Shown piece by piece: positions 18,972-58,088 of a DNA stretch of 64,000 nucleotides. This DNA is from Escherichia coli (GTDB lineage Bacteria; Pseudomonadota; Gammaproteobacteria; Enterobacterales; Enterobacteriaceae), in the NCBI GenBank assembly GCA_902500205.1, contig GCA_902500205.1_4868.1. One strand, 5' to 3'. Within the stretch, counting starts at the first letter, position 1. Every line of letters begins with the position of its first letter. The position numbers and the translations under genes are program-made. The notes beneath the pieces were generated by a model, which was not told the DNA's origin, ran no database searches, and saw nothing but the letters and a program-made list of their open reading frames with translations.

Positions 18972-20105
18972 ATGTCGACGCTCGATTTAGATTTAGAAGT
19001 CCTGACTGACGACTACGATCGCCTGGTCGCACTCGAAGGTCTGGGAGTTAAGCCCGACTTCCCTGCGGTTTGCGCGATTCGTCAGCGTTGGTGCTTAACC
19101 GACGACGGTGAAGATATGTTGGTTGCTCGTGAATCGCGCGAAGCGATGGAGCGTGCTCAGTTTATGACTGATACTGACCCGCGGGCTGGCATCCATCGCG
19201 CAGCAGGGCGCATTACTGCGAAAGCTGTTAAAGGTACTGGAAAGTTAGTGGGAGCTGGACTAGGCGCAACCGCAAAGGGCGCGGGTAAACTTTCGAAAAA
19301 GCTCGCATTACGCTTTTACGATTTCGCGGAAGCGCTAGCGAAAGAACAAGCCGACCGTTTGAAAGAAATAACTTCGAAAGCCGCATTCATGGAACGTAAG
19401 CTCAATAAGCTCAAAGCACGAATGTCGTTATTGGATGACCACAAAACACTCGCTGCGGTCGACGTTCACACGAGTAGCTGGACGTCTAAAGTTTGCTTTG
19501 AAGATCGACCCGATTTTGAAGCGTGTGTTAAGTTTTCTAAACGAACAAATGCGTACGAAGGCGTCGTGCAAAAGTACACGGTTTACACACGCACCGCTCT
19601 GAAGAAAAGCAAAGCATTCGAAGGGCCAGGCTTAAAACAAATCAGCAAGTCCACGAACTGGGCAGTTAAGCGCGCTGCTGGGTTGCTTGGCATCATCGAT
19701 CCCTTTAAAAAGGTGGAAGCTTTTCCTGTCCCTGGAAATATCGTTGTGGTTGAGCACCATAGTGGTAAGGTCAGTTGGGCAATTGCGCGTGACGGTGAGT
19801 ATGGTGAAACCATTAAATCGCTGGATATGCATCAGTGTGGGAAAGCAATAGAGGCTGTGGAAGCACTTATCAAATCTATTGCAGCACGCGGAACAAAGAA
19901 CCGCGTTGTGGGTTACACCGGCATTTACGAAGAAGTGGAAGCGATGAAGTCCGAGCTTAAGAACCTGGAAGGGGATGAGCTGAAAGAAGCCACTTTGCGC
20001 TACCGCAATGCAATGGCAATGGAAGACGCATTCACCACGGCGTTGGTACGCGTGGCGGAGGGTCTAATGGAGTGGACGAAGCAATCGTTGGCTGAGGTGA
20101 AATGA
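18972..20105 (+). CDS. Hypothetical protein (377 aa), translationally coupled to the downstream GNAT
   Basis: 'taaggagcagggg' SD; stop TGA overlaps the GNAT start. Confidence 0.8.
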   Translation: MSTLDLDLEVLTDDYDRLVALEGLGVKPDFPAVCAIRQRWCLTDDGEDMLVARESREAMERAQFMTDTDPRAGIHRAAGRITAKAVKGTGKLVGAGLGATAKGAGKLSKKLALRFYDFAEALAKEQADRLKEITSKAAFMERKLNKLKARMSLLDDHKTLAAVDVHTSSWTSKVCFEDRPDFEACVKFSKRTNAYEGVVQKYTVYTRTALKKSKAFEGPGLKQISKSTNWAVKRAAGLLGIIDPFKKVEAFPVPGNIVVVEHHSGKVSWAIARDGEYGETIKSLDMHQCGKAIEAVEALIKSIAARGTKNRVVGYTGIYEEVEAMKSELKNLEGDELKEATLRYRNAMAMEDAFTTALVRVAEGLMEWTKQSLAEVK

Positions 20106-22149: not shown

Positions 22150-22171
22150 GGATAGATGTTATCTTAGGGAG
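22150..22171 (+). promoter_or_regulatory. Conserved 22-bp promoter-like motif, copy 3
   Basis: 'ggatagatgttatcttagggag' abutting the terminator; 95 nt upstream of ATG 22267; leader holds two hairpins. Confidence 0.55.
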
Positions 22172-22266
22172 ACGTGCAAAAATTACGTTTCATCCTTAGC
22201 ATATGCTAGAAGCCGTTGTGAGTCGGTTAAAACTCACCAACTTAAACTTAAAAGCGAGTAAACAAA

Positions 22267-23765: not shown

Positions 23766-23805
23766 CCCCTCTTACCTTCGGGTAAGAGGGTATTGTCTTT
23801 TTTAC
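23766..23805 (+). terminator. Intrinsic terminator (TTCG loop)
   Basis: 'ccctcttacc-ttcg-ggtaagaggg' followed by 'tattgtctttttt'. Confidence 0.85.
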
Positions 23806-23851
23806 AGATCGTAACAGTCTTATGCTTTTTGCTTCCAGTCCACTAAATTTC

Positions 23852-23873
23852 AGATATATATTACTTAGGTGAG
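23852..23873 (+). promoter_or_regulatory. Conserved 22-bp promoter-like motif, copy 4
   Basis: 'agatatatattacttaggtgag'; 49 nt upstream of ATG 23923; identical to copy 7. Confidence 0.55.
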
Positions 23874-23922
23874 AGTTACTACTAAACTCTCTAATCGACT
23901 ATTAATCTAAAGGAGTATTCTA

Positions 23923-24288
23923 ATGCGTTTTAAACATCAAACCGTTGTGTTGGCAAAGAAAGCATTTCTGGTTCGTCTCTCTTACATTATTACTCGTGTC
24001 ACTGCGAAGGATGTTACGCAGAAAGACATTGCATTGTTGGTAGGCTGCTCACCGTCACAAATCTCTGCGATTAAAAATGAACGCGAGAAAGCCGTGACTA
24101 TCGAAACTCTGATGCGTGTTGCCGATACACTGCGCCTGAATTACGAAATCGTTTACCGTTCCATTAACGGCAAATGCCGCCATAGCTTCAAAATTGAATC
24201 CTGCACCGACTACATGAATAACTGTCCTATCCGGGTACGAGAAACAGGACTTAAAGTCATGGCACGTAAACCTTCTGCAGTGATGTAG
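23923..24288 (+). CDS. Helix-turn-helix (XRE/Cro-like) transcriptional regulator (putative)
   Basis: 'QKDIALLVGCSPSQISAIKNEREKAVTIETLMRVADTL' resembles an XRE-type HTH; strong 'aaaggag' SD. Confidence 0.65.
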   Translation: MRFKHQTVVLAKKAFLVRLSYIITRVTAKDVTQKDIALLVGCSPSQISAIKNEREKAVTIETLMRVADTLRLNYEIVYRSINGKCRHSFKIESCTDYMNNCPIRVRETGLKVMARKPSAVM

Positions 24289-30427: not shown

Positions 30428-30449
30428 AGATAGATGTTATTTTACTGAA
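30428..30449 (+). promoter_or_regulatory. Conserved 22-bp promoter-like motif, copy 5
   Basis: 'agatagatgttattttactgaa'; 27 nt upstream of ATG 30477. Confidence 0.5.
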
Positions 30450-39166: not shown

Positions 39167-39188
39167 AGATAGATGTTATCTCAGTGAA
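39167..39188 (+). promoter_or_regulatory. Conserved 22-bp promoter-like motif, copy 6
   Basis: 'agatagatgttatctcagtgaa'; 56 nt upstream of ATG 39245; leader hairpin 'ctctga...tcagag'. Confidence 0.55.
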
Positions 39189-39244
39189 CCTCTGAAATTT
39201 ACGTTTCAATCAGAGCTTATGTCATGTATTAAGGAGCAATTAAA

Positions 39245-39577
39245 ATGTCCAAAGTCTATCACATTGCGGTATTGCGTCAGGCAACTGACCTTGAAGGCGA
39301 CGGTGAACTTCGAATGCAGGAAGCCATTCTGAGCACCGTTAAAGAACTTAACCAAGCAAACAATTTCGATGCACGCTTCGAGGCGCTGCCTGTAAGCCGT
39401 AACGCTTTCTACGGCAGTCAAATCCTGGCAACCCAGTTTGCGATGGCTTTAAGTGACTTGCGCAATAACCCTAGTCCTGAAACCGCGACGAAGATGAACA
39501 AACTGTCGTTATGGATGAATAACCTGGACGTCCCCGCAGCATCCACTGTAAGTGGTTTGGGGGTGGTTAATGGGTAG
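39245..39577 (+). CDS. Hypothetical protein (110 aa)
   Basis: 'ttaaggagc' SD before ATG. Confidence 0.75.
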   Translation: MSKVYHIAVLRQATDLEGDGELRMQEAILSTVKELNQANNFDARFEALPVSRNAFYGSQILATQFAMALSDLRNNPSPETATKMNKLSLWMNNLDVPAASTVSGLGVVNG

Positions 39578-43649: not shown

Positions 43650-43688
43650 ACCCTACTCCTTCGGGAGTAGGGTTTCTTCTTTTTTTGC
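43650..43688 (+). terminator. Intrinsic terminator (TTCG loop)
   Basis: 'accctactcc-ttcg-ggagtagggt' followed by 'ttcttctttttttg'. Confidence 0.85.
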
Positions 43689-43711
43689 CTAGTCCGATTA
43701 CAATTATTTTC

Positions 43712-43733
43712 AGATATATATTACTTAGGTGAG
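43712..43733 (+). promoter_or_regulatory. Conserved 22-bp promoter-like motif, copy 7
   Basis: 'agatatatattacttaggtgag', identical to copy 4; 51 nt upstream of ATG 43785. Confidence 0.55.
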
Positions 43734-43784
43734 AGTTAACAATTAACTCTTATCTAATCGACCATTATCTTAAGGAGTTTTAAC

Positions 43785-44231
43785 ATGTACATTCTGAATA
43801 ACGAACTTACTAAATACGCTAGCAAAAACCCGATTATGATTTCTTTCCTAATCGTGATGGCGGCCAACAAACAAGACCCTAGCGAATTCACTACTGAGGA
43901 CTTCGAAGAGATTATCGCCAACGCCAAAGAAGCCACGTTCCAGACCACAGAACCTACTCGCGACGAGTTCCCTCTAGGTGAAGCCGGCGATGTAATGTTT
44001 AACGACATGATTGCTTCGTACTACATCAATAGACGTGGTATGGAAATCGAATACGACGAACTTCCTACTAGCAGCTTTGCTGAAATGATTCGTGATTATC
44101 GTCGTCAAGTTGTCTCTGACGACATCGTAAAGAAATACATGGCACAAATCAGCCCATTCAGTCTTGAATTCGAAAACCGTGCAATCGCCTTAGCGACGCA
44201 TCGCCTGCGTTTAGAAAAAGAAGTACACTAA
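43785..44231 (+). CDS. Hypothetical protein (148 aa)
   Basis: 'cttaaggag' SD; downstream of promoter motif copy 7. Confidence 0.8.
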   Translation: MYILNNELTKYASKNPIMISFLIVMAANKQDPSEFTTEDFEEIIANAKEATFQTTEPTRDEFPLGEAGDVMFNDMIASYYINRRGMEIEYDELPTSSFAEMIRDYRRQVVSDDIVKKYMAQISPFSLEFENRAIALATHRLRLEKEVH

Positions 44232-44968: not shown

Positions 44969-45000
44969 AAGGGAGCTTCGGCTCCCCTTCTTTTTTTGTT
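44969..45000 (+). terminator. Intrinsic terminator (TTCG loop)
   Basis: 'gggagc-ttcg-gctccc' followed by 'cttctttttttg' and more T-rich sequence. Confidence 0.8.
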
Positions 45001-45117: not shown

Positions 45118-45915
45118 ATGTCTTTTACTTCAAAACAGAATCTGCTAAAACTCATCAACGAAGAGAATAAGATAAGCCCACCGCTTACCTTTGACGATGT
45201 TGATATCGGACTGCCGGAGGTTGTGTCAGTAGACGGTCGTGATTCGGAGGTAGTCCTTACCTCGAAGATGCGCGGTGATGAAGGTACGCAAGTGATTGTG
45301 GACTACCATCGTCGTCCATTAGAGGACTACCTTAAAGGCGATGTTGCCTTTGGAGACGAGGACGTGCAAACCACGCACGACTTACTCGCGGCGATTAACG
45401 AGCGTTTTAATCTGTCTATCTTACCTGAGGATATCGAAGATAACCCCATTGATGGACAGACGCACACAGTCGTTGCTGTTGAAACTTCCCACGAGTGGCG
45501 AAGTCAAGCGGTCATCGAGCTGAAACCTGCTACACCTCTGGCAGAAGTAATAACCAATACAGAGTTGAGCGGTCTTCTGTACCCGGATCACCAGGACATC
45601 CAGTTGGGTCAGGCGTATATCTATTCGCGCGACATCGATTGTAGCCACATCTCTCGTTTCCTGAGCCTCTTAGCGGTCGGTATCGAAGTAGATGACACGG
45701 CGTTAGCAATCGAACTCAACAAATGTGTTCCTGAGATTTGGGTGGCTGAAGATACCCCATCCCCGTATAACTTGCGTGGTGCTACTGTCGTATTCGACGG
45801 CGTACCTGCAGACTTACCGGGAGCAAATACGGCGTTCGCGAAAGTCGTGTCAGTGCAACTGACCGATAAATGTACGAACTTCCAGGGCACCCTCAACTTA
45901 CACTTTAACAACTAG
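45118..45915 (+). CDS. Fibre-like paralog 1 (virion appendage family; function inferred)
   Basis: Shares the family N-terminal signature (about 80 aa, '...RNT...YYDR.NL...') and C-terminal '...L.LHFNN'. Confidence 0.8.
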   Translation: MSFTSKQNLLKLINEENKISPPLTFDDVDIGLPEVVSVDGRDSEVVLTSKMRGDEGTQVIVDYHRRPLEDYLKGDVAFGDEDVQTTHDLLAAINERFNLSILPEDIEDNPIDGQTHTVVAVETSHEWRSQAVIELKPATPLAEVITNTELSGLLYPDHQDIQLGQAYIYSRDIDCSHISRFLSLLAVGIEVDDTALAIELNKCVPEIWVAEDTPSPYNLRGATVVFDGVPADLPGANTAFAKVVSVQLTDKCTNFQGTLNLHFNN

Positions 45916-45925
45916 GAGGGTATAG

Positions 45926-46768
45926 GTGTCTATTTACGATAAGCCCTCGAAAGAGATGTTGTTAGATGCTATTAACCGACAGAACGGATTAACGGCCAAT
46001 CCACTCACATGGGAGCAGGTTGCAACTGGCTTCCCTGAGTCTGTCCAAACGCCTGGCGCTGACCGGAATACGCGTGTGCTCTTATACGGGTTGAACGGCA
46101 AGGGCTACAAAGGCAACGTTACGCTCGAATACGACCGTATCGAAATGGAAATTCTGTTCAGGAACGTAATACCGGTAGTCGTTGCCGACCCGGTAAATAA
46201 ACTCTCTGAGTTGTTGCCGTTTCTGAATGCGAAATACGGCTTGTCTTTAGTTGCCGACGATATCGTTGACCAGTCAGTAAAAGATTTGGGAGAAAGCTGG
46301 TTAATCGATGTGACTATTAAGCCCGGTTGCTTGGCCTGGCAAGGTGGTTTCCGTTTACGCTTTGCGAAGTTCTTCCCGAACTTGGCGGATGTGGTGACGG
46401 ATGTTGACCTCAGCGCAATTATCGCGCCGTTCGTGGTTGCTAGTAAACCACAGGCCGAGTATGTGGCGTATGGTTACGATTGGACTGAACTGCAAAAACA
46501 GTTCACCACCGATTGGGTTTACAACCGTGCAATCACTGCAGCGGATGTTGAGTTGTTGAATGAAGTGGTGCCATTAAAGTTTGCATATGTGACGGGGGCG
46601 AATGCGCAACCTGAACAAATTGCACTCCAAGGTGCACGATTTATGGGGATAACTTCAGTCACACCGAACGATAGTTACAACCCCGATTATCAGCGTGTGG
46701 CGATTATCAAGCTAGCTGCGGACAGCAACTACGCCGGTAATCTCATCCTTCATTATCTCCCGATATAA
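45926..46768 (+). CDS. Fibre-like paralog 2
   Basis: 'aggagg' SD before GTG; 'DRNTRVLLYGLNGKGYKGNVTLEYDRIEM'. Confidence 0.8.
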   Translation: MSIYDKPSKEMLLDAINRQNGLTANPLTWEQVATGFPESVQTPGADRNTRVLLYGLNGKGYKGNVTLEYDRIEMEILFRNVIPVVVADPVNKLSELLPFLNAKYGLSLVADDIVDQSVKDLGESWLIDVTIKPGCLAWQGGFRLRFAKFFPNLADVVTDVDLSAIIAPFVVASKPQAEYVAYGYDWTELQKQFTTDWVYNRAITAADVELLNEVVPLKFAYVTGANAQPEQIALQGARFMGITSVTPNDSYNPDYQRVAIIKLAADSNYAGNLILHYLPI

Positions 46769-46778
46769 GGATTTTGAC

Positions 46779-47624
46779 ATGCCACTTTTAGCCACAGCTG
46801 TAAAGATTATTATCGCGGAGGTTAACGTCGAAAACAATCTCGATTTAAAAGTCGAGGATGTTGTTTTTGGTGTCCCTGCGATTCCAACGTCTGACGAAGA
46901 CTTGGCAAAAGCTAACGGTCACAACGCGATGGTGCGCATTCAGGCATTGGCCACGGCTAATGCTATCGGTGCCACTACCGTCTATTACGATCGTGTTGAC
47001 TTCGCAGACATGTTTACCGATCCGGACGGGATTCAACCTTTACGTGTTCCTGCGCGTCTCGATGCTGTTTACCAGATGCATGACGTGGTCGGGTTAATTA
47101 ACCAGTATTACGGTCTCAGCCTTAAACCTGCAGATGTGGTGAATACCGAAATCGACAGGAAGACATGGCGTGTGGATCTGATTGCCACGCCCACTTCCTT
47201 AGGTTGGATAGGGCAACAACAGGTACAGCTGTTACCAGGCGATGCGTTGCTTCCTGCAAACTTCGAACCGTTAACAGTGATGCCTTACGAGTATCCGTAT
47301 TTCAACATCAAGGTCGGTCAAGGTGCAGTTTATTCGTATCCCTGGCGCTTTGATAATTTCGCGGAGGAATTTCAACGACTAGGTGCTGCGATAACCACAG
47401 AACGTCTGGCACAGATTCTCAAAACGGTCACCGGTGATAACTGGACAACATACCGTAACCCTATCGACTTTAACCTTCGTGAAGCCGTCGTCGTCTATAA
47501 CGGGCGTAACAAAGCGGAATTACCAACCAACCCAGCAGTCGACAACGTGCTGATTGTGGAGCTGTCGTTGTACTGTCTGAATTTTGGCGGGCGTTTGTAT
47601 TTGCATTACAACGACCCTGATTAA
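46779..47624 (+). CDS. Fibre-like paralog 3
   Basis: 'TTVYYDRVDFADMF' and C-terminal 'LYLHYNDPD'. Confidence 0.8.
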   Translation: MPLLATAVKIIIAEVNVENNLDLKVEDVVFGVPAIPTSDEDLAKANGHNAMVRIQALATANAIGATTVYYDRVDFADMFTDPDGIQPLRVPARLDAVYQMHDVVGLINQYYGLSLKPADVVNTEIDRKTWRVDLIATPTSLGWIGQQQVQLLPGDALLPANFEPLTVMPYEYPYFNIKVGQGAVYSYPWRFDNFAEEFQRLGAAITTERLAQILKTVTGDNWTTYRNPIDFNLREAVVVYNGRNKAELPTNPAVDNVLIVELSLYCLNFGGRLYLHYNDPD

Positions 47625-47645
47625 TCCTGAGTAAAGGAAGTAAGA

Positions 47646-48557
47646 ATGAAACCTTTAAACAAAACGTCCGATAAGCTGGTTCTGGATTTTATTAATGAGA
47701 AAAACCCAGACGCAGAACTGGAACTTTCTAAAATAACGCTCGGCACACCGACCCCTATTAGCGATGAAGGTGCTGATCGCAATACCAGCATGACCCTGAC
47801 TGCGAAAAAGAACTCCGGGTACATCGGTACTCAGGACGTGACTTATAATCGCCTGGAAGGCGGTGCGCTGTTCCGTAATGTAACAGCATACCTCGACGTT
47901 AAACTGCCGAAAACCACCACAGACCTGCTGACGACCCTGAACACCCAATACGGATTGAAGCTGACCGAAGACGATATCGTTCCGGCGGCTATTCCGGAAA
48001 ATACCAACCCGCCGCTGACTAACCCGAACGATCCGGACCCAGCACCGGTTGACCATGTCATTACCTTCAAAGAAGACTGCTACGCTTATCTGGGCAGCAT
48101 CCCGGTTAAAATCGGTGCTAAGCCTCAGGTTGGTGAACGTCTGAGTCTGGTGGTAACACAAACCAAGCTCGACGGCCTGGTTTACCCAGATGGTCCAAGC
48201 GAAGCGAAGGGTCAGGGCTACATCTACTCTTACGGTGTAGACTGCACAGCAATCGCAGCATTCCTGAAAGTACAGGCGAAAGGTGTTATCGCTGGCGACT
48301 CTGCATTCCCGGTTGAGCTGAATAAAGTTGTGCCGGAACTGTGGGTTGCATCTGATGAGCCTGCGGATTATAACCTGAAAGGCGCTAACGTGTTGTATGT
48401 TGGTTCTACTGCTGACGATGGCACTGCTTCAGGCGACGAACCTAAGAAACCGGTTGAAGGTGCAAACACTGCTTACAACCAGGTTCTGCTGCTGCAGCTG
48501 GATGACACTCTGTGCACCAACTTCCAGGGCATCATGTACCTGCACTTTAATGCCTAA
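47646..48557 (+). CDS. Fibre-like paralog 4 (codon-optimised, probably the most abundant member)
   Basis: Family motifs plus host-optimised codons (runs of CTG, CCG, GGT). Confidence 0.85.
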   Translation: MKPLNKTSDKLVLDFINEKNPDAELELSKITLGTPTPISDEGADRNTSMTLTAKKNSGYIGTQDVTYNRLEGGALFRNVTAYLDVKLPKTTTDLLTTLNTQYGLKLTEDDIVPAAIPENTNPPLTNPNDPDPAPVDHVITFKEDCYAYLGSIPVKIGAKPQVGERLSLVVTQTKLDGLVYPDGPSEAKGQGYIYSYGVDCTAIAAFLKVQAKGVIAGDSAFPVELNKVVPELWVASDEPADYNLKGANVLYVGSTADDGTASGDEPKKPVEGANTAYNQVLLLQLDDTLCTNFQGIMYLHFNA

Positions 48558-48570
48558 TTAGGCCTCGCTG

Positions 48571-48610
48571 GGAGGAGGAAATCCTCCTCCTGGCTACTCC
48601 TTTCTTTTTT
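48571..48610 (+). terminator. Hairpin with distal T-tract (weak internal terminator)
   Basis: 'ggaggagg-aaat-cctcctcc' then 'tggctactcctttcttttttgg'. Confidence 0.45.
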
Positions 48611-48626
48611 GGCCGAGGAGGCTATT

Positions 48627-49466
48627 ATGGCTTTATATAGTCTGTCTCAGCGACAATATCTGTACGATGCGATTAATGCCGAAAACCCGGATGCTGTTCT
48701 ACCGATGGGTTTAGACAATGCTATCATCGGTACGCCGAAAGCAATCACACCGACAGCAAGCGGTGCCAACACCGAGATTATCATTCGTGGTCGTCAAGGT
48801 CGTGGCTATATCGGTCCTCAGACGTTCCGTTATAAGCGCTTGTCGCTGAACGACTTATTTAAGAACATGACACCTCAGGTAACTGCACCGAATGCCTACG
48901 GTTGGTTGAACGTGGAGTCGAAACGTACTGCGTTTGCGCAGAACCTGAACGGTCGTTATGGATTAAACCTGGTTGCAGACGATATCCCAGAACAATACGT
49001 TTATCTGAACGTAAACAACACGATGCGTATTAACGCTAGCTGTATCCAATACACTGGCAGCATCACCTTTATGTCTATCCGGGGTAAGAATAGCCTCGAA
49101 GACCTCGTGGTAAACGACATCTTGTTGGCTTTGAACCACCCTGCAGCAGCAAGCACTGGTAAGAAATACATGGGCTTCTTGACGTACGGGGAAGACTTTA
49201 CCGATGAAGTGCAGGTTATGGCCTCGTTTAAGAACGGGCGAATGGATGTAGGAAGTAACTTTGATTTGGGTTACACGTCCAATCTGATGGCCACATTGGT
49301 CGCACGTGGGGTACCGTCGTTTGATCCGACGAACTGCACAATTACCCGCTACAAAACGAGTGAGTTGGCGACCGCCAATAAAGCGTACGATAACGTATTG
49401 CTGATTACCGGCATTCAGAACGACCCGAAAGTAATCGGCGAGTGTATGTTGCACTACAACAACTAG
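48627..49466 (+). CDS. Fibre-like paralog 5
   Basis: 'gaggagg' SD before ATG 48627; C-terminal 'CMLHYNN'. Confidence 0.8.
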   Translation: MALYSLSQRQYLYDAINAENPDAVLPMGLDNAIIGTPKAITPTASGANTEIIIRGRQGRGYIGPQTFRYKRLSLNDLFKNMTPQVTAPNAYGWLNVESKRTAFAQNLNGRYGLNLVADDIPEQYVYLNVNNTMRINASCIQYTGSITFMSIRGKNSLEDLVVNDILLALNHPAAASTGKKYMGFLTYGEDFTDEVQVMASFKNGRMDVGSNFDLGYTSNLMATLVARGVPSFDPTNCTITRYKTSELATANKAYDNVLLITGIQNDPKVIGECMLHYNN

Positions 49467-49476
49467 GAATTAGCGA

Positions 49477-50364
49477 ATGGCTATTTATCAACCTTCTAAA
49501 GACGTCCTGTTGGCAGCAGTGAACGCACAGAACTCGCTTGCTGTTAAGATGACTGACATCATCTGGTCCACGCCAAAGGACATCCGTGGTACGGAGAAGG
49601 AAACGCTGACTAACCGTAACACGCAAATTAAAATTACGGCAGATGGGGTAACGGGCTCTACCTGGTCGGGTAAGAAAAATGTCTTCTACAACCGCATGAA
49701 AGTCGAAGACTTGTTAGTGCTGATCGGTGACACGTTGGCGATCGGCCCATCCAACGAAACCTTGTATGCGGCCATTCCTGGACTGAACCAACGTTACGGT
49801 TTTGTTCTGGAAGAAGCTGACCTGCAGGACGCAGATATCGAGTGGAACGGTGATAAGACCGAAGGAACTGTGCGCGTTGTTGCACATCCAGAGTCTATCG
49901 GTTGGGTTGGACAGGCGACATTTAAAGTCGTGAAAGGTGATGAGTCGTTAGTCTCTGCAGTCACCACTAACGTCCTGACCGGTCTGAAATACCCGAACGG
50001 TCAGATGGGTTCCGAAACCGTTACTGCGGTCATTGCAGAGGTTTATTCCTACCCGTACAACTTCACTAAGTACCGAGATGCTCTGCTGGCATACAAGCCG
50101 GGTATTCTGTCTGGACAGCCGTTAACGGATATGGTTAACCTGCTGAAAGATATTACGGGTACTGCATGGGTAGCGACCACTTCCGCTTCCTACGGTTTGG
50201 CGGGCGCGGAGGTTATCAGCGTTGGTCTGAATGACCCTGTTGCAATGCCGACAAACGCGAAGTACAAGTATGCGCTGGTGTTGAAACTGCCTGTTACCTG
50301 TACCACCATCGTCGGAACGTTGTATCTCCAGTTCAACGATCTGGACGATCCAAGCGAGGTATAA
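49477..50364 (+). CDS. Fibre-like paralog 6
   Basis: Family N-terminal motif; C-terminal 'LYLQFNDLDDPSEV'. Confidence 0.8.
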   Translation: MAIYQPSKDVLLAAVNAQNSLAVKMTDIIWSTPKDIRGTEKETLTNRNTQIKITADGVTGSTWSGKKNVFYNRMKVEDLLVLIGDTLAIGPSNETLYAAIPGLNQRYGFVLEEADLQDADIEWNGDKTEGTVRVVAHPESIGWVGQATFKVVKGDESLVSAVTTNVLTGLKYPNGQMGSETVTAVIAEVYSYPYNFTKYRDALLAYKPGILSGQPLTDMVNLLKDITGTAWVATTSASYGLAGAEVISVGLNDPVAMPTNAKYKYALVLKLPVTCTTIVGTLYLQFNDLDDPSEV

Positions 50365-50367
50365 TTG

Positions 50368-51195
50368 ATGATCAACTATGCTAAGCCGTCAAACGAGTTG
50401 GTCTTTGACCTCATTAACCGGGATAACCCAAACCTACCTATTAAAGCGTCGCCGGCAAACTGCTACGTGGAGAAAGTGACACAGGTTCCCGTTAATGCAG
50501 CTTCCAACAACCGCAATACGTCGGCACGCTTGCGCGGTATTCAGGGTTCCGGATTTCGAGACGCAATCACCGTTTATTACGACCGTGTGAACTTAGCGCG
50601 GTTATTGCCGTGGGGTCCTTCTGTCCAGGCGCAGTTCGTCACGTTTGACGCTCCCAACCTCCACTCAGCCTTTTCGGTGCTCTTGGATACTTACGGAGTA
50701 AACTTCTCTGCAATCGATATCTATAACCTCCCACTGGCGGGCCCCAATACCCCAAATTACACCAATACACAGAACATCGTAGCGCTATCGACATCTCCGG
50801 CTTATATCGGTTCTGCGACGTTGCGTTATAACCGTGGTTTACCGGTACTAGACACTTCGGTGAAATCGGATGTCTTGAATGCGATTCAAGAGCCTATCTC
50901 GCCGTCTCTCGGTAAGAAGTGTATTGATTTGTTGACGTACGGTATTGACTTTACCGCGTATAAAAACCTACTGACAGTAGATGCTTCTGGCCTACCGCAG
51001 TGGGCTGGTTTGCGTAAGGTGTTGGATGACCTGGGTATTCCGAACTACGCGGGGCCACTGAACAGTAACACCGTTCAGGATGTGCCGACTTCCACCGCTC
51101 AGTTCGCTAACAAATCGTACGACCGCGTGGTTATCCAAACGGGCATCGATGAGGAAGGCGTGAAAGGCGTGGCGTACTACCACTATAACAGCTAA
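50368..51195 (+). CDS. Fibre-like paralog 7
   Basis: 'NRNTSARLRGIQGSGFRDAITVYYDRVNLARLL'; C-terminal 'AYYHYNS'. Confidence 0.8.
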   Translation: MINYAKPSNELVFDLINRDNPNLPIKASPANCYVEKVTQVPVNAASNNRNTSARLRGIQGSGFRDAITVYYDRVNLARLLPWGPSVQAQFVTFDAPNLHSAFSVLLDTYGVNFSAIDIYNLPLAGPNTPNYTNTQNIVALSTSPAYIGSATLRYNRGLPVLDTSVKSDVLNAIQEPISPSLGKKCIDLLTYGIDFTAYKNLLTVDASGLPQWAGLRKVLDDLGIPNYAGPLNSNTVQDVPTSTAQFANKSYDRVVIQTGIDEEGVKGVAYYHYNS

Positions 51196-51200
51196 GTGTA

Positions 51201-51227
51201 GGGGCTCTTCGGAGCCCCCTCTTTTGG
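51201..51227 (+). terminator. Hairpin with short T-tract (weak internal terminator)
   Basis: 'ggggctc-ttcg-gagcccc' followed by 'ctcttttgg'. Confidence 0.5.
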
Positions 51228-51242
51228 CGATGCGGAGTCCCT

Positions 51243-52655
51243 ATGCTATTTTACTCGAAGGAGTCGGCACTGCTTGTATACGACCAAGTCAATCGGGATA
51301 ACCCTGATTTAGTTGTTAAGCTGACGCCGGCTATCGCTGCTTTAACCGGCGGCCCAACTTCAGTTACGTTAAACCAACGTAACACCAAAGCTGTTTTCAC
51401 CGGGTATCCAGGGACAGGTGTACAAGGTAATGTTACCGTGTACTACGACCGGATTAACCTGGCCACTTTATTTAATTTTGTGCCGACTGTGGCTATCAAA
51501 GATACAGTCTTAACGGTACGAGACGCGCTACCTGCAATAAACGACGCATTGGGGCTTACATTAGTTGCTTCTGATTTGCAGTCACCTGACGCAAGTTTAC
51601 CTAAACCGAGCGCTTCGCCGCAGACGTTGAAATTAAATATCTCAGGTAATTGCCCTGCGTTTACAGGCAGCTTAACGATACGTTATACCGTCCCGAGCGG
51701 TGCAATTTACCCCGATTCTGGACCTGGCCCTAAAACGTTGCTGCAAGGTAACACTATCGCGGGTTATTTCGGAACAACCACAATTGCAGAGTTGTTTACA
51801 CACTCTCAACTTCTTAATGCCACTATATCGGCCGGTGCGTTACCACCGGTACATTCTGGTGCCGAAGGTTGGTACAAGTTCTTTTACCAGGGTAGGGTTA
51901 TTTACCTCCCGATCAGTCCTGTCGCTAGCTCCATCTCCTGGAATACGTTATATACAAACGGACTCGTTTACGGAACAGATGATAATGGTAAATACCCTGC
52001 GGCGACGCCCGTTAACCAGGGACGCATCATTAGCTTTACAGGCGCAGACAACAAAAGGTTTTACTTCCGCGTTCGTCTACCTAGTGCTGGGAAGGACCCA
52101 TACGTCAGCGGCACCCCAACTGCCGCTGAGTTAGCAGGTAGTGAGTTTGAGATGTTCAACTTTCTGTATAATGGAACGTGGGACAAACCGATTAACAGTT
52201 ACTGGACGCTGTTCTGTTTATTGAAAGATACACTGAAGACCAACGTCGCCTATCATCGCATGGCGACGTTGTCTGGAGCCAGTTGGACAAACTTAGGAAA
52301 ATCATCGAGCGCAGGCAACTACTACTGGTTCCCGGTGCTGGAGTTGGTGGATAAATCCACAGTTACCTTGGGTTTAGAAGATATCCATGGTGCGGTAGAT
52401 TACAGTCTCCAACCGTGCAGCGTGTCCGCAGAAAACACGTTTAGTCTCAAGCCGTTGGTGCTCGGTAATCCAGATACTACCGATTTCGAACCGGTAGTTG
52501 TTACTTCAGAAAACAGTTTCGCACTGCATCCGCCTGCTTTAATGCTGCCGAAGACAGTCGATTTCCAACCTATTGCGGCTACCGCTGAAATGTATACGCC
52601 CCCTGACAAGACAACGTTAACGTCTCTTAACGGTGAACTGGACGGCTTTAAGTAG
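51243..52655 (+). CDS. Cassette gene A1: long fibre-like protein
   Basis: Family N-domain, 'YPDSGPGPKTLLQGNTIAGYFG', C-terminal repeats ending 'LNGELDGFK'. Confidence 0.85.
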   Translation: MLFYSKESALLVYDQVNRDNPDLVVKLTPAIAALTGGPTSVTLNQRNTKAVFTGYPGTGVQGNVTVYYDRINLATLFNFVPTVAIKDTVLTVRDALPAINDALGLTLVASDLQSPDASLPKPSASPQTLKLNISGNCPAFTGSLTIRYTVPSGAIYPDSGPGPKTLLQGNTIAGYFGTTTIAELFTHSQLLNATISAGALPPVHSGAEGWYKFFYQGRVIYLPISPVASSISWNTLYTNGLVYGTDDNGKYPAATPVNQGRIISFTGADNKRFYFRVRLPSAGKDPYVSGTPTAAELAGSEFEMFNFLYNGTWDKPINSYWTLFCLLKDTLKTNVAYHRMATLSGASWTNLGKSSSAGNYYWFPVLELVDKSTVTLGLEDIHGAVDYSLQPCSVSAENTFSLKPLVLGNPDTTDFEPVVVTSENSFALHPPALMLPKTVDFQPIAATAEMYTPPDKTTLTSLNGELDGFK

Positions 52656-52666
52656 AGGTATCATCT

Positions 52667-53665
52667 ATGTCTTTTACTTTGCGTTGGAAAAATCCAAACG
52701 TAATCCCTACGGTAGTAAAAATCTACCGTGACGTTAAAGATATCACACCAAGCGCTTTGCCTGAACCGATTGCAACGCTCTCAAATGGCGAGACAGAATG
52801 GCGTGATGCCACCGCCAAACCAGGCGCAATCTATTATTACCTTCTAACGGTAACCGCCAACGGTAAAACAGTGGCATCGTCTAGCCAGAAATACACCATT
52901 GAGATAAAGCGTGGGATTGGCCCAATGACTATTCTAAACGGTAACGACCGTTTAGGGTTTATGGGTGCGGTTCCTTACGACGAACAATGGCTTCCGTCGC
53001 AAATGCCACCTGCATTTTTGGCGATGTTCCCTAATCTATTAACCGATCGTGTGGCGTTGTATAAATTTACCCGAAACGGGAAAATCTATTACATGCTATC
53101 TAATACGTCGCAGTTCCCGAATACGCCTGTGGACTGGGCTTCCCTCTATCAAGCCGGTTTAGTCTATGGTACAGGCGATGCTGGCCCAGAGAACGGCCAT
53201 GGAACGCTACCAGACACTCCACAAGACGCTAAGATAGTCCACAAAGGGGATACGTACATTATGCGGCTTCCTCGCGGCCTGACGATGTCTAGCGAGCCTC
53301 CTGCGTATCCTTTCGTAGCTGACTATAATGGGAAAACCCATGATGAAATCGCTTCTCTAACCAACCCGTGTGAGTATAACGATTTACTTTACACGATGGT
53401 TAACGAGGTGCCGTGGAAACAGCGTTGGGCTAACTGGGCAACGAACAGTTATACTTTTCTGGGGCAGGGTACTTTGGGAACCTTGGCAGCGTATTTCGGC
53501 GGTGGTGTTCTCTGTATGGAACACGACACCGCGGAAGACCGTGTGCTCCATCGTGGTATCTTTAACAATGCCGGTGGAACACCCGTATCAGCGATTCAGC
53601 GTATAAACTATTTATCACCCACCACGAAAGGGCGTTACTACCCTATCTTTGAACTGGTCGAGTAA
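52667..53665 (+). CDS. Cassette gene B1: fibronectin-III-like N-terminus plus shared C-domain
   Basis: Paralog of 56121-57107 ('...FTLRWKNPN...IYRD...NGETEW...YYY...'). Confidence 0.85.
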   Translation: MSFTLRWKNPNVIPTVVKIYRDVKDITPSALPEPIATLSNGETEWRDATAKPGAIYYYLLTVTANGKTVASSSQKYTIEIKRGIGPMTILNGNDRLGFMGAVPYDEQWLPSQMPPAFLAMFPNLLTDRVALYKFTRNGKIYYMLSNTSQFPNTPVDWASLYQAGLVYGTGDAGPENGHGTLPDTPQDAKIVHKGDTYIMRLPRGLTMSSEPPAYPFVADYNGKTHDEIASLTNPCEYNDLLYTMVNEVPWKQRWANWATNSYTFLGQGTLGTLAAYFGGGVLCMEHDTAEDRVLHRGIFNNAGGTPVSAIQRINYLSPTTKGRYYPIFELVE

Positions 53666-53674
53666 GGGGCAGTC

Positions 53675-54598
53675 ATGACTATACGGTTAAGCTGGCCGTC
53701 CCAAGCCAGCAAAGGTCTTACCGCGATTGAAATCTACCGCAAGGAAGGTTGGAACGCAACAATCGACGTTTACAATCCAGGCACACCCCACGCAACTTTA
53801 TCAGGCAACGCGGTAGAGTTCGTAGATAATATCGATACCCTGACGAAGAATACAACCTATCGTTATTGGGTAGCTGCTGTGAAGGACAGTGAACGACTTA
53901 TCGGCAATCCGATTACGCAAGGATTCTATCCGGACACCGGGCCGGGTCCGCAAACAATCCTGCGCGGTGACTGGGCTTCAGGTTATTTCGGTACAGTACC
54001 GAATACAGAGTTCTTTAATACTGCCGAGTTAAAACTCATGTTAACTGCGCAGCAGGGAAACATGTTTGTCTACGACCCTCAGGAATGGCACAAGTTTATT
54101 TTCCGTGGGAGAATTGTCTTCTTCCCAGCGACGATGCATTCGAAAACCAACTCGGTACAAATGGCGTATCAGTACGGTATGATGTACGGGACCGATGATG
54201 TCGGAAGTATTGTTCCGCAGGGAGCCACGGCGACTAAACAAGATTGTAAGGTCACGAAGGATGGTCGTACGTACCGTATCCGATTACCTTACGCAGTCCC
54301 GTACGACGCTGTTCTCTCAGGACAGGATTACAACAACGGTGAATGGCGAAACACAATGGGCCGTTTGTATCCTGTCGGTGCAGAGTTCGCAGCCCTCGGT
54401 CTTGGTGCGATTGACTCACTTGCAAGACAAGGCGCGACTGCGCAGCCGAATGAGTCAGGTGCCGCTGTATTAGCTCCTTTGTGGAGCAACAACATATTCG
54501 CTTATGCGTATGGCACCGTGCCTATGGGGATTAGTAACACCGCAGGTGTCGGGAACTCGGCCACGATATTCTTTGCTTTCGAATTAGTCTTACCGTAA
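53675..54598 (+). CDS. Cassette gene C1: FN3-like N-terminus plus GPGP domain
   Basis: Paralog of 57110-58009 ('YPDTGPGPQTILRGDWASGYFGTV'). Confidence 0.85.
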   Translation: MTIRLSWPSQASKGLTAIEIYRKEGWNATIDVYNPGTPHATLSGNAVEFVDNIDTLTKNTTYRYWVAAVKDSERLIGNPITQGFYPDTGPGPQTILRGDWASGYFGTVPNTEFFNTAELKLMLTAQQGNMFVYDPQEWHKFIFRGRIVFFPATMHSKTNSVQMAYQYGMMYGTDDVGSIVPQGATATKQDCKVTKDGRTYRIRLPYAVPYDAVLSGQDYNNGEWRNTMGRLYPVGAEFAALGLGAIDSLARQGATAQPNESGAAVLAPLWSNNIFAYAYGTVPMGISNTAGVGNSATIFFAFELVLP

Positions 54599-54611
54599 CG
54601 GAGTAAAAGCC

Positions 54612-56108
54612 ATGGGGTTGTATACAGAACCTTCAATGGAACTGCTCTGCCAACAAATTGTGCGTGACAATCCCGGTTTAGCAGGAAAAATCACCGCTGA
54701 CTCCGTTGGGGTCAGGGGTGTTCCTGTTGCGAGAAACGTTAACGGACGAAACACACAGATTACGTTGGTAGGAAAACCTGGTAAAGGATTTGCTGGGGAA
54801 ATAACGGTATATTACGACCGGTTGAATCTGGCCAGTCTGTTCAAGTCTGGCCCGAATATGGTGAGTATTCCACGTAGCGCACAAACCCATGCGGAAGCGT
54901 TACCGGCGTTCAATGAATTGAACGGGTTGAACTTAACCGCGAGTGACATCACCAGTCCAAACGTTGCATTAATGAAATACGCTACGCCGGAAACTATAAC
55001 TCTGACGGCGCACGCTAACTCCTTGTGCTATACCGGGTCATGCAAGATGACCTATGTTTACGAACCGATTGCGATGTATCCGAAGTCGGGCCCTGGGCCA
55101 AAAGGATTAATGGCCGGTAATGAGTTATACGGATTCTTTGGGCTGGTAAGCGCGGAAGAGTTATTCACATCTGATGAAATGGTGTATGCCCTCTATAACG
55201 GCACCAACTGGCCTAACCGCTACGCTATCAAGTGGCTCAAATTCTTTCTGAATGGGGCGGTAGTGTTTGTTCCGACCCGTGCGATTTGCAACGTTACCTG
55301 GGCAGACCTGTACAACAAGGGTGCAATATTTGATTCCGGAGACGCAGGACCTCGCCCGAAGTCGACTTACACACCTGTCGATGTTGAACAGTTGAAATAC
55401 ATGGTAAAACGGGATGATGAAGGAACGCATTATTTCAGAATGTCTATCCCGTATTACACCGAGAACGCCGCCGCGCCTGATTGGAGTAAACCGCCGTCAA
55501 TCACCTCTATCCTGTCACTGACCAGCAAATTGGGGTCGGTGAACGTATATGGGGAATGGGGAACTCTTAGCACGACTGATGCTAACTTCCTGGATTCCGT
55601 GTGGTTACGACACCAGTTCGGTGCCGACCAAGCGTATTACCAGTCTATCAGTGGGAGCTATCGTTCATACACCTACATCTACACCTCTTCTGGCTTTTGG
55701 CCAATCCTGGAGATGTTTGATGTTGCCAATGAACCTGTGCCGTTGATTGACGAAGGTGCAGAACTAACATGGGCACCGTCCGTGGTTACTCTGACGGACA
55801 TCGACCAAAATGAATCGCTTCGTGTGGTGCCTATTACGGAAACCTCCGCTGCAGCGAATCCACGTCCGTTAGTTTTCAACACCGACAACACCGAAACTGC
55901 CACCCCTGCCTGGGTGCGGGAAGCGTCATCAGACTCACCACGTCCTCTGCTTGCCACGACGGACAATGATGAACGTGCATATTCCGTCGCGGTAACAGGC
56001 ATGGCTAGCGTTAAGATTAGACCGATTATTCTCACGACTGACCAAATCGCCCAACCTTCAAAAATTACTCTGGGCGATACTAACGGTGAGTTGGATGGAT
56101 TCCAATAA
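54612..56108 (+). CDS. Cassette gene A2: long fibre-like protein
   Basis: Paralog of A1; 'YPKSGPGPKGLMAGNELYGFFG'; ends 'TNGELDGFQ'. Confidence 0.85.
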   Translation: MGLYTEPSMELLCQQIVRDNPGLAGKITADSVGVRGVPVARNVNGRNTQITLVGKPGKGFAGEITVYYDRLNLASLFKSGPNMVSIPRSAQTHAEALPAFNELNGLNLTASDITSPNVALMKYATPETITLTAHANSLCYTGSCKMTYVYEPIAMYPKSGPGPKGLMAGNELYGFFGLVSAEELFTSDEMVYALYNGTNWPNRYAIKWLKFFLNGAVVFVPTRAICNVTWADLYNKGAIFDSGDAGPRPKSTYTPVDVEQLKYMVKRDDEGTHYFRMSIPYYTENAAAPDWSKPPSITSILSLTSKLGSVNVYGEWGTLSTTDANFLDSVWLRHQFGADQAYYQSISGSYRSYTYIYTSSGFWPILEMFDVANEPVPLIDEGAELTWAPSVVTLTDIDQNESLRVVPITETSAAANPRPLVFNTDNTETATPAWVREASSDSPRPLLATTDNDERAYSVAVTGMASVKIRPIILTTDQIAQPSKITLGDTNGELDGFQ

Positions 56109-56120
56109 GAGGTAACGACA

Positions 56121-57107
56121 ATGGCTTTTACAATTCGTTGGACGAACAATAACCCTGGGGCTTCGACCGTGAAGCTGTACCGCGACACCAAACCTCTGGT
56201 GCGTACGGCATTACCTGAACCTCTGGCAACGTTCACTAACGGGGAAACTGAGTATACTGACCGAACAGCGATACTGGGGACAACGTATTACTACATGACC
56301 ACTGTGACAGTGGGAAGCCGAACACTGTTCAGTCCGCAGAAATCAATTCTGATTCAGAACCGTCGCGGTATCGGCATCGTGACTCCACAGTACGGTGATG
56401 ACCGCTTTGCGTATTACGGGTATGTGGCGTACGGTGAATTGCCTAGCGCGGCTGATTATCCGCCAGGGTTTGTGGCCATTTCTGGATATGACCCAACTGT
56501 TAAGCCGGGCTTGATTAAGTTCCAGCTAGACGGTAAAATTCTGTATCTGTTTAGTGGTCTTCGTGTGAACGGCAACACGCTGTATAGCCGTGATGCGATT
56601 TATAACGCGGGTTTGCTGTACGGTGTGGAGGGACCTGGTCCGGAAGGCGGTCATGGTGATTTACCTGACGTTGACCAGGCTGGGGAGTTTACGTGGTTGG
56701 GTGACCGCTATCGGATGCGCCTGCTGCGCGGGTTAACGCTCGACAGTGAAAGCCCGGTCATGACACTCGACGCACAGTGGAACGGTAAACTCCATGACGC
56801 GTCACCGTATACTGCCGATAGCGAATACAACCGACTCATCTATGGGATAAGTAGCTGGTTCCCAGAAAAGAAAAAAGTGATGTCCCTGATAAAGTGGTCG
56901 AACACCAGCATATTCGGAAGTGGATCGCTGGTGGCAGGCCGTGGGGCGCATTGTCAGGAGTTTGACCCAGACAGTAAGTTGGGGCTGACGCGCGGATGGG
57001 CGGCGGCGGATTCCACTGATACCGTGGATAACCTCCAGCGTATACAACATGTCCCTGCGACCGTGGGCGGTATTTGGATTCCAGTAATCGAGCTTATCGA
57101 GGATTAA
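56121..57107 (+). CDS. Cassette gene B2
   Basis: Paralog of B1. Confidence 0.85.
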   Translation: MAFTIRWTNNNPGASTVKLYRDTKPLVRTALPEPLATFTNGETEYTDRTAILGTTYYYMTTVTVGSRTLFSPQKSILIQNRRGIGIVTPQYGDDRFAYYGYVAYGELPSAADYPPGFVAISGYDPTVKPGLIKFQLDGKILYLFSGLRVNGNTLYSRDAIYNAGLLYGVEGPGPEGGHGDLPDVDQAGEFTWLGDRYRMRLLRGLTLDSESPVMTLDAQWNGKLHDASPYTADSEYNRLIYGISSWFPEKKKVMSLIKWSNTSIFGSGSLVAGRGAHCQEFDPDSKLGLTRGWAAADSTDTVDNLQRIQHVPATVGGIWIPVIELIED

Positions 57108-57109
57108 TC

Positions 57110-58009
57110 ATGCCTATTACATTAAACTTTGCACAACGGAAGCCACAGGCGCTCGATAACATTGAAATCTATCGCAAGACGCCGGGCAACGCCACCATTG
57201 ATGTTAATGCACCGGGAACGCCTCTGGCAACCCTTCCGGGTGACGCTACATCGTACGAAGACAACGCTGTGGAAAACAACACCACTTACCGTTATTGGAT
57301 AGCTGCGGTTAAAGACGGTGAGCGTGTCTTCAACACCCCTACCGCCCAAGGGTTCTTTTTAGACACCGGGCCTGGCCCCCAGAAACTGTTATACGGCGAC
57401 TGGCACGCCGGATACTTTGGAACAGTAACGCCAGCAGAGTTATTCACTAACGCGGAACTGAACAGCCTCGTGGTGAATATGTTCAGTTCCGCCGTTGGTG
57501 CCTGGCATAAGTTCATTTACAAAAACCGTATTCTGTTTATGTCCGATAACTCGATAATATACGCTAGCCCGCAGTTCATTTATAACCAGGGGCTGATGTA
57601 CGGCCAGGATGGCAACGGATATGTGCCGAGCTGGGCTAGTGCACGTAACCAACGCCGCACGGTGACGAAAAACGGTTACGAATACGTGGTGCGCTTGCCG
57701 TATTTGTTCGACTACAAATACTGGACGTCTTTCGTTGGAAGCGGTAACACCGAGTTGTATCTCGACGGTGAGTGGTTTAACACCTTCGCGCGCCTGTACA
57801 ACTACAGTGGGCAGTTTCCGCGCTTTGACGACATTCCGGTCGGTCCAATCGATTCGGTTACTGCCCAACAATCTGCATTCTTTGCGGCTATGAATAACTT
57901 GTCCGCTCAGTGGTACAACCGTCCACCCTACCCAGAGTCGCCGTCATGGGGTAACTACGGTACCGATACAATACGCTCTATTGCGGTACTTGAACTCGTT
58001 CTGCCTTAA
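57110..58009 (+). CDS. Cassette gene C2
   Basis: Paralog of C1; ATG 57110 after 'gagga' (track start 57074). Confidence 0.8.
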   Translation: MPITLNFAQRKPQALDNIEIYRKTPGNATIDVNAPGTPLATLPGDATSYEDNAVENNTTYRYWIAAVKDGERVFNTPTAQGFFLDTGPGPQKLLYGDWHAGYFGTVTPAELFTNAELNSLVVNMFSSAVGAWHKFIYKNRILFMSDNSIIYASPQFIYNQGLMYGQDGNGYVPSWASARNQRRTVTKNGYEYVVRLPYLFDYKYWTSFVGSGNTELYLDGEWFNTFARLYNYSGQFPRFDDIPVGPIDSVTAQQSAFFAAMNNLSAQWYNRPPYPESPSWGNYGTDTIRSIAVLELVLP

Positions 58010-58056: not shown

Positions 58057-58088
58057 AAATAGGCCCTTCGGGGCCTATTTTCTTTTTT
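58057..58088 (+). terminator. Intrinsic terminator (TTCG loop)
   Basis: 'aaataggccc-ttcg-gggcctattt' followed by 'tcttttttag'. Confidence 0.85.

Follow-up and report, generated by a model that had tools for sequence, protein, structure and literature searches.

Short stem-loops at the extreme 5′ end of a transcript are established stabilisers of mRNA in E. coli, as exemplified by the ompA and papA 5′ untranslated regions and by the leader hairpin of phage T7 gene 10. A hairpin of another kind belongs to the early promoters of phage N4, where it is located upstream of the start on the template strand, combines a conserved stem with a loop of 3 nt and serves a single-subunit enzyme. How infection is launched by jumbo phages that inject their own RNA polymerase is an active question, and the early promoters of these phages have so far been described only as an AT-rich box. 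The experimentally defined consensus of AR9 early promoters is AAATATATATTAT-(6N)-G+1, and transcription in phiKZ and phiR1-37 likewise begins 6 nt past the element (PMC5312081). An AT-rich motif of about 10 nt, with its centre near −10, is found ahead of early operons in every such phage, and split β/β′ genes, with virion and non-virion multisubunit RNA polymerases, are typical of SPN3US-type phages (PMC7598289). SPN3US itself is named among the phages that possess both enzymes (PMC7598289, PMC5312081).

The window studied here, by which we mean the whole stretch of 64,000 nucleotides that was analyzed, was found by megablast to be 96–97% identical to SPN3US-group jumbo phages of Salmonella and E. 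coli (Seoulvirus), with base 1 of the window corresponding to approximately 70.4 kb in SPN3US. The annotation of SPN3US, the closest relative, contains seven “RNA polymerase beta subunit” genes, and this annotation together with the literature indicates a genome encoding both virion and non-virion multisubunit RNA polymerases, as expected of a phage that uses virion polymerase early promoters. A further feature of the window is a long array of tandem paralogues, of approximately 270–500 aa and with recurring motifs (positions 45118–58009; repeat families D1, D3, D4 and D6), the SPN3US counterparts of which are annotated as virion structural proteins.

Early promoters and operon starts in the window

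We found seven copies of the degenerate core AGATAKATRTTAYYT in the window, where about one would be expected, starting at positions 2107, 2305, 22150, 23852, 30428, 39167 and 43712; all are on the + strand and all lie upstream of ORFs. The two blocks that are the subject of this study were correctly numbered in the initial annotation as copies 4 and 7 of this + strand series. The AT-rich element and its spacing in the window can be written as AGATATATATTAC-6N-G, with TTAGGT as the spacer of copies 4 and 7. This element matches AR9 AAATATATATTAT at 11 of 13 positions with equal spacing, and it includes the phiKZ element TATATTAC, which occurs at early sites in the first 50 kb of phiKZ as TATATTAC-6N-G. 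In the complete SPN3US genome, we counted 25 copies of the motif, with a G exactly 4 nt after the 15-mer in 25/25; measured from the element, the G six bases on is invariant in sequence in all 25 SPN3US copies and all seven window copies. A conserved AT-rich element, a G at 6 nt and multiple coding-strand copies before operons are the hallmarks of promoters read by virion RNA polymerases (vRNAPs), and all three were found here; most of the window copies are, in addition, preceded by terminators. The repeat matches the early promoter of an injected virion RNA polymerase, a known jumbo-phage class, and the reading of the motif as a promoter in the initial annotation agrees with the experimentally defined vRNAP early consensus of related jumbo phages. 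Because the element, the 6-nt spacing and the invariant G all match AR9 and phiKZ, we infer by homology that +1 is G23871 in copy 4 and G43731 in copy 7. A host σ70 promoter was also considered and rejected, as our scans identified no + strand −35/−10 site (16–18 nt spacing) at either block, and the number of σ70 sites in the scans was not above that in shuffled sequence.

Both blocks share one layout on the + strand. Copy 4 is preceded by an intrinsic terminator with a UUCG tetraloop and a T-run (23767–23790, with the T-run reaching 23803), which ends the upstream operon. The copy 4 promoter (23848–23870) consists of TTTC, AGATATATATTAC and the spacer TTAGGT, with the core 15-mer at 23852–23866. 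It is followed by a hairpin that starts at the inferred +1 (23871–23891; arms GAGAGTT at 23871–77 and AACTCTC at 23885–91, loop ACTACTA), by the conserved leader box AATCGACTAT (23893–23902), and by a Shine-Dalgarno sequence (AAGGAG, 23910–15) and an ATG at 23923 (23910–23925 as one feature), with which an HTH_3 regulator gene (23923–24288) begins. Copy 7 likewise comes after an intrinsic terminator with a UUCG tetraloop and a T-run (43650–43673, T-run to 43686), and has the same promoter (43708–43730; core 15-mer 43712–43726), a hairpin from the inferred +1 at G43731 (43731–43751; GAGAGTTAA at 43731–39, loop CAA, TTAACTCTT at 43743–51), the conserved leader box AATCGACCAT (43756–43765), and a Shine-Dalgarno sequence (AAGGAG, 43772–77) and ATG (43785; together 43772–43787) that open the gene of a 148-aa protein. 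The copy 7 operon comprises three genes and has a terminator at 44971–44986. As the blocks sit directly after strong UUCG terminators, their placement is as expected of operon starts. The operon-end terminators at 2066–2094, 23767–23803, 43650–43686 and 58064–58088 are stereotyped, each with a G+C stem, a UUCG tetraloop (CCTTCGGG) and a T-run, and terminators of this type often adjoin an early promoter downstream.

The similarity of the two blocks was largely as first described. The 31-nt identity was confirmed, with tttcagatatatattacttaggtgagagtta occurring exactly twice in the window (23848–23878 and 43708–43738), and an 18-mer taken from it, searched with up to three mismatches, matched only those two window sites, with 0.05 matches expected by chance. 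The shared leader was also recovered, as AATCGACYAT followed by AAGGAG in both copies, and the downstream genes are indeed unrelated, in that the two proteins gave no blastp match and the copy 4 protein has an HTH_3 domain. The shared upstream context “agtcc”, by comparison, is probably due to chance, as its distance differs between the two copies and relatives do not keep it. The notion of a duplicated block stood in part: two identical copies do exist, but they do not represent a two-copy event, as the cassettes form a family of seven per genome.

The other five window promoters, also on the + strand, are diverse downstream of the start. Copies 1 (2107–2125) and 5 (30428–30446) are without a 5′ hairpin, copy 2 (2305–2323) has only a weak A-U hairpin, and copy 6 (39167–39185) has an inverted repeat, CTCTGA...TCAGAG, from approximately +5. 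Copy 3, a variant (GGATAGATGTTATCT; 22150–22191), has a hairpin at +1, formed by GAGACGTG and UACGUUUC around a 7-nt loop, that folds at −8.0 kcal/mol. Copies 1 and 2 are 198 nt apart and enclose only a 27-aa ORF (2162–2245), with copy 2 located just upstream of a 342-aa ORF at 2335. Copies 3 and 6 (22169–22235 and 39186–39250) have in common a second leader family, AAATT(T)ACGTTTCA...AGC(A/T)TATG, and it would seem that leaders come in reusable families beyond that of copies 4 and 7.

A hairpin at the inferred start and a separate leader box

Folding was run on both leaders, and both formed a hairpin with differing loops, as had been proposed; the copy 4 loop, initially given as “actactaa”, is in reality the 7-nt ACTACTA. 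The copy 4 hairpin folds at −7.8 kcal/mol (z = −2.9), and the copy 7 hairpin has a z of −4.5. Seven SPN3US promoters, including one whose core is a variant, make up the subclass (A)GATATATATTACYTAGGTGAG (positions 4427, 56294, 65413, 94239, 113986, 165687 and 223277, where 94239 is the counterpart of copy 4 and 113986 that of copy 7). A hairpin is present immediately 3′ of the promoter in 7/7, and each of the seven reaches −5.9 kcal/mol or better in a fold from +1 to +3. The arms of these hairpins are AGATGAG / CTCATCT, AGATTGC / GTAATCT, GATAGA / TCTATC, GAGAGTT / AACTCTC, AGAGTTAA / TTAACTCT, GAGTTAA / TTAACTC and AGCGTTA / TAACGCT. At one of these sites (SPN3US 165687–165790), a genuine terminator, GGCTACCTTCGGGTAGCC with a T-run, comes directly after the promoter and 5′ hairpin, ahead of the box and gene, an arrangement that could be an approximately 60-nt small RNA or a regulated attenuator.

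We compared the hairpins with chance expectation using one test for real and control sites alike, in which the best stem-loop within +1 to +32 was taken, provided that its first paired base was at or before +3; the controls were 1500 genomic sites, likewise starting with GA. Among the 25 SPN3US promoters, 48% folded at −5 kcal/mol or better, compared with 17.7% of controls (Mann-Whitney p = 0.002). A scan of IMG/VR with ATATATTACYTAGGTGA returned 85 loci, and after chance matches were removed, 41 unique promoter contexts remained, on contigs of 220–246 kb. Of the IMG/VR copies, 68% reached −5 kcal/mol vs. 4% of shuffles, and after clustering, 24 of 36 independent copies were at −5 kcal/mol or better, again compared with 17.7% of controls (binomial p = 1e-10). 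The first paired base coincided with the inferred, homology-based +1 in 29/33 copies, and likewise in both copies in the window, a position that speaks for a specific role at the 5′ end. The loops ranged from 3 to 11 nt without conserved sequence, and the stem sequences also varied. Cassettes of this kind number in the dozens in related Salmonella and Erwinia phages, across three phage genera. Only about half of the SPN3US early promoters carry the hairpin, and within the first 50 kb of phiKZ a hairpin at +1 was seen in only two of six early promoters; its absence from many early promoters implies that the polymerase does not require it. The phiKZ early promoter of the nuclear-shell gene PHIKZ054 (TATATTAC-6N-G; 45560–45620) has a hairpin from +1 at −8.8 kcal/mol. 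A search of window positions 20000–46000 with Rfam covariance models, at E-values of up to 1, gave no relevant match.

The two strands differ in their ability to fold. With fixed windows, the sense strand folded better than the antisense strand in 34 of the 41 copies and worse in 4, and G·U pairs numbered 25 across the stems, with position 1 accounting for 18. This asymmetry rules out both an operator with duplex symmetry and a hairpin on the template strand, and fits a folding molecule that is either RNA or the non-template DNA strand.

Orthologous loci, which we located using tblastn and blastn, showed which parts of the hairpin are free to change. Upstream of the HTH gene, SPFM16 has 5/7 loop bases changed and its stems intact, Asesino and phiEaH2 keep the stem around different 8-nt loops, and Machina has a wholly different stem, GGACATTG / CAATGTCT, that still starts at the G. 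At the copy 7 locus, SPN3US differs from the window in the loop only, SPAsTU carries a compensatory A-U to G-C change (TTAA...TTAA to TTGA...TCAA), and in SNUABM_29 the terminal G·U is replaced by G-C. For both loci, the promoter, hairpin and box are at syntenic positions in three genera, and the encoded proteins at both have diverged to 35–59% identity. Because it was kept while the proteins diverged to this extent, the cassette is, judging from these comparisons, old and maintained and not the result of a recent duplication.

Covariation was examined first in an ungapped alignment of nine cassettes that was anchored on the promoter only, and which was thus not fitted to the structure. In this alignment, 95.8% of cells were paired, compared with 84.2% after shuffling (0/500 shuffles reached the observed value) and 36–50% when the 3′ partner was slid by 1–3 columns, and changes on both sides were seen in five of the eight pairs. 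A covariance model built from these nine cassettes identified copies 4 and 7 as its only sites in the window, along with the seven of SPN3US, and was used to align 50 distinct sequences. In the resulting alignment, which is biased towards the structure of the model, 93.4% of cells were paired, with far lower values in the slid controls (22–50%); compensatory changes were present in 7/8 pairs (60 cells), and the covariation score was 0.424 vs. 0.149 for shuffled alignments (0/500 shuffles reached the observed value). MAFFT followed by RNAalifold on untrimmed hairpins produced no consensus structure, because the loop lengths differ. As in stabilizing stem-loops, it is the structure and not the sequence that is conserved, as seen from the covariation, the varying loops and the replaced stems. 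The suggestion in the initial annotation that selection acts on RNA structure is supported by this strong covariation across paralogues and orthologues and by the retention of the hairpin in orthologues despite loop and stem replacement; neither of the outcomes that it had named as speaking against it, a lack of a shared fold and a lack of conservation in homologous phages, was observed.

The leader box followed rules of its own. AATCGACYAT lies 6–8 nt before the Shine-Dalgarno sequence in Seoulvirus, and in Machinavirus phages a related GACTAT directly adjoins it. The box is also present at SPN3US 57150, 167592 and 224197, where the gene that follows lacks an early promoter and the spacing to the Shine-Dalgarno sequence is likewise fixed, and the HTH gene of SPAsTU retains the box although promoter and hairpin are gone. 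The window (Seoulvirus) and Asesino (Erskinevirus) share 28 nt of leader without a single difference, where the proteins are 59% identical, and conservation of the box is far above neutral expectation. Because the box occurs without promoter or hairpin, it is by its distribution a separate element of the leader, and by its conservation a selected one. It probably serves translation initiation. Its complementarity to 16S rRNA seems to amount to approximately 5 nt.

Proposed function of the hairpin and alternative explanations

We propose, with moderate confidence, that the most likely role of the 5′ hairpin is to shield immediate-early mRNAs from 5′-end-dependent decay by RppH and RNase E. Hairpins at the 5′ end have been reported to stabilize mRNA and to impede RppH, RNase E prefers an accessible 5′-P, and some mRNAs are not stabilized by 5′-end sequestration (PMC3997798). 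According to our proposal, each block would be a module, insulated by a terminator, from which an SPN3US-like jumbo phage starts its early genes and in which the virion-packaged multisubunit RNA polymerase would read AGATATATATTAC and start at the G six bases on, and the first ~20 transcribed bases would fold into a 7–9 bp stem-loop, such that the 5′ terminus of the mRNA would be base-paired. A paired 5′ end would be expected to hinder RppH, which needs unpaired 5′ bases, and RNase E, which needs an accessible 5′ monophosphate. The setting for this protection would be the Salmonella or E. coli host, and protection would matter most before any phage-encoded countermeasure or protein exists. Downstream of the hairpin comes an unstructured A/U-rich stretch that contains the box, which is set at a fixed distance from a strong Shine-Dalgarno sequence and would act in translation initiation. 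The stem starts approximately 0–3 nt from the 5′ end, relative to the homology-based start, as is the case for stabilizing stem-loops, and the hairpin is of modest stability and clear of the ribosome-binding site by approximately 20 nt. The structural facts are much firmer than the protective function that we infer from them.

A role for the hairpin in transcription, in which a nascent-RNA or non-template DNA hairpin would aid vRNAP promoter clearance, pausing or RNA release, seems to us rather unlikely, though several observations would suit it. The 5′ arm is also the conserved initially transcribed sequence (GAGAG...), the bias towards the sense (non-template) strand fits this role equally well, and how these virion polymerases recognize promoters is not established (PMC7598289, PMC5312081). 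Complementarity also enters the −6 to −1 spacer at times, which is within the transcription bubble yet absent from the RNA. In copy 7, it extends upstream to 43725 and downstream to 43755 (TTAGGTGAGAGTTAA-CAA-TTAACTCTTATCTA), thus reaching 6 nt past the inferred start by way of G·T pairs, with a stability of −13 kcal/mol on the sense strand and −6.2 kcal/mol on the antisense strand. Several relatives share a similar extension, a subset of copies running 2–6 nt upstream of the inferred +1, and the true −6 to −1 spacer contributed a mean ddG of −3.7 kcal/mol, compared with −2.3 kcal/mol when this upstream segment was shuffled (p = 0.001). Such upstream pairing is not predicted by a purely RNA-level element that starts at +1, and it is possible that it stems from heterogeneous start sites, a role of the non-template strand or relatedness among the copies. 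Against a role in transcription, contiguous extension to −1 was found in only 12/29 copies, which is about the chance level, the stems mostly end exactly at the invariant G, and roughly half of the SPN3US early promoters and most of the phiKZ ones sampled have no hairpin.

It is improbable, in our estimation, that the hairpin and AATCGACYAT together form a recognition signal for a protein, whether one that regulates or enhances translation, one that mediates antitermination in the manner of nut sites, or one that handles or exports transcripts made in the early compartment. Such a signal would account for the conservation of the box beyond neutral expectation, with 28 nt identical between Seoulvirus and Erskinevirus where the proteins are 59% identical; a hairpin and a linear box near a promoter also resemble the lambda nut sites, and antitermination has been suggested in the literature for 201phi2-1. 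However, unconserved loops of 3–11 nt and variable stems offer no sequence-specific surface, and the presence of the box without promoter or hairpin makes the two elements look independent. With a similarly low expectation, we can also picture the cassette as an address label on the immediate-early transcripts of nucleus-forming jumbo phages, which a phage or host factor would read for export, selective translation or antitermination, or else as a non-template DNA hairpin that would help the virion polymerase, which is not known to use a sigma-like factor, to open or leave this promoter subclass.

It is very unlikely that the hairpin acts in the leader as an attenuator or terminator yielding short 5′ RNAs. 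According to the literature, transcripts of phiKZ and 201phi2-1 commonly end prematurely within the 5′ UTR, and the family member at SPN3US 165706 has a genuine terminator right after its hairpin, but the stems themselves are weak, at −6 to −9 kcal/mol, and rich in A/U, they are followed by an average of 1.9 T in 5 nt, no U-run follows copy 4, and terminator scans leave the hairpins unflagged. We therefore rejected an intrinsic terminator, which would show a G+C-rich stem and a U-run. We give equally little credence to the idea that the similarity is functionless and is a remnant of a recent promoter-cassette duplication or gene conversion; the identity of copies 4 and 7 over 31 nt amid unrelated flanks and genes would be in keeping with such an event, whereas the syntenic promoter, hairpin and box in three genera, at 35–59% protein identity, and the concentration of changes in loops or in compensatory positions are not. 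Lastly, the inverted repeat is most improbable as a DNA operator through which a dimeric repressor, such as the copy 4 HTH protein, would shut off early transcription, and this was largely refuted, for although the palindrome overlaps the start site, an HTH_3 gene comes first in the copy 4 operon and GAGAGTT and AACTCT are spaced 7 nt apart in both window copies, the arms differ wholly among family members and orthologues (GGACATTG in Machina, GATAGA, GAGCGTTA, GAACTTGC), the spacing ranges from 3 to 11 nt, and at G·T positions the repeat loses its symmetry between strands.

Comparison with known systems

In SPN3US and in Erskinevirus and Machinavirus phages, we thus find a promoter subclass that is firmly linked to a covarying hairpin, located at the base predicted to be transcribed first, and to a leader box. 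This provides a mutable cis-element with which the survival and translation of early phage mRNA, before phage protein is made, could be tested, and practical parts for phage engineering in the form of a terminator, promoter and putative stabilizer cassette. For annotation, the gain is that seven operon starts are marked in the window.

The promoters closest to ours are those of the phiKZ type (AR9, phiKZ), with which they share a nearly identical AT-rich core, an invariant G six bases on, a T/A-rich upstream region, many coding-strand copies before operons, and a phage that encodes split β/β′ subunits. They differ in that conservation in the window subclass extends over the spacer and start (TTACYTAGGTGAG), to which a hairpin at +1 is coupled, and in that the start in the SPN3US group is placed by homology with AR9 and phiKZ. 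In the part of the literature that was covered, we found no mention of 5′-terminal hairpins on the early transcripts of jumbo phages.

Phage N4 resembles this system in having a virion-injected polymerase and early promoters associated with a small DNA hairpin. The jumbo-phage hairpin, by contrast, is downstream of +1, variable in sequence, with loops of 3–11 nt, and favors the sense strand by 34 to 4, and a hairpin promoter of the N4 type was rejected on position, loop, stem and strand. The lambda nut site (boxA plus boxB hairpin) is similar in that its leader, too, combines a hairpin close to the promoter with a linear box that is conserved; here, however, neither loop nor stem is conserved, the order of the elements is reversed, and the box is also found alone at the Shine-Dalgarno sequence, and we did not class the cassette as a nut-like site.

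The 5′ stabilizers of E. coli (ompA, papA, T7 gene 10) are the nearest parallel to the hairpin. They too are short stem-loops with 0–2 unpaired bases at the predicted 5′ end, with free stem sequence, located far upstream of the ribosome-binding site, and faced with the host RppH and RNase E. In contrast to these, the jumbo-phage hairpin recurs across a whole promoter class that is read by a multisubunit phage enzyme, its 5′ arm is at the same time the conserved sequence that is transcribed first, and stabilization is here a predicted property. The pairing of promoter and hairpin is apparently undescribed; of its two halves, the promoter belongs to the known early class of jumbo phages, and the hairpin behaves like the known 5′ stabilizers.
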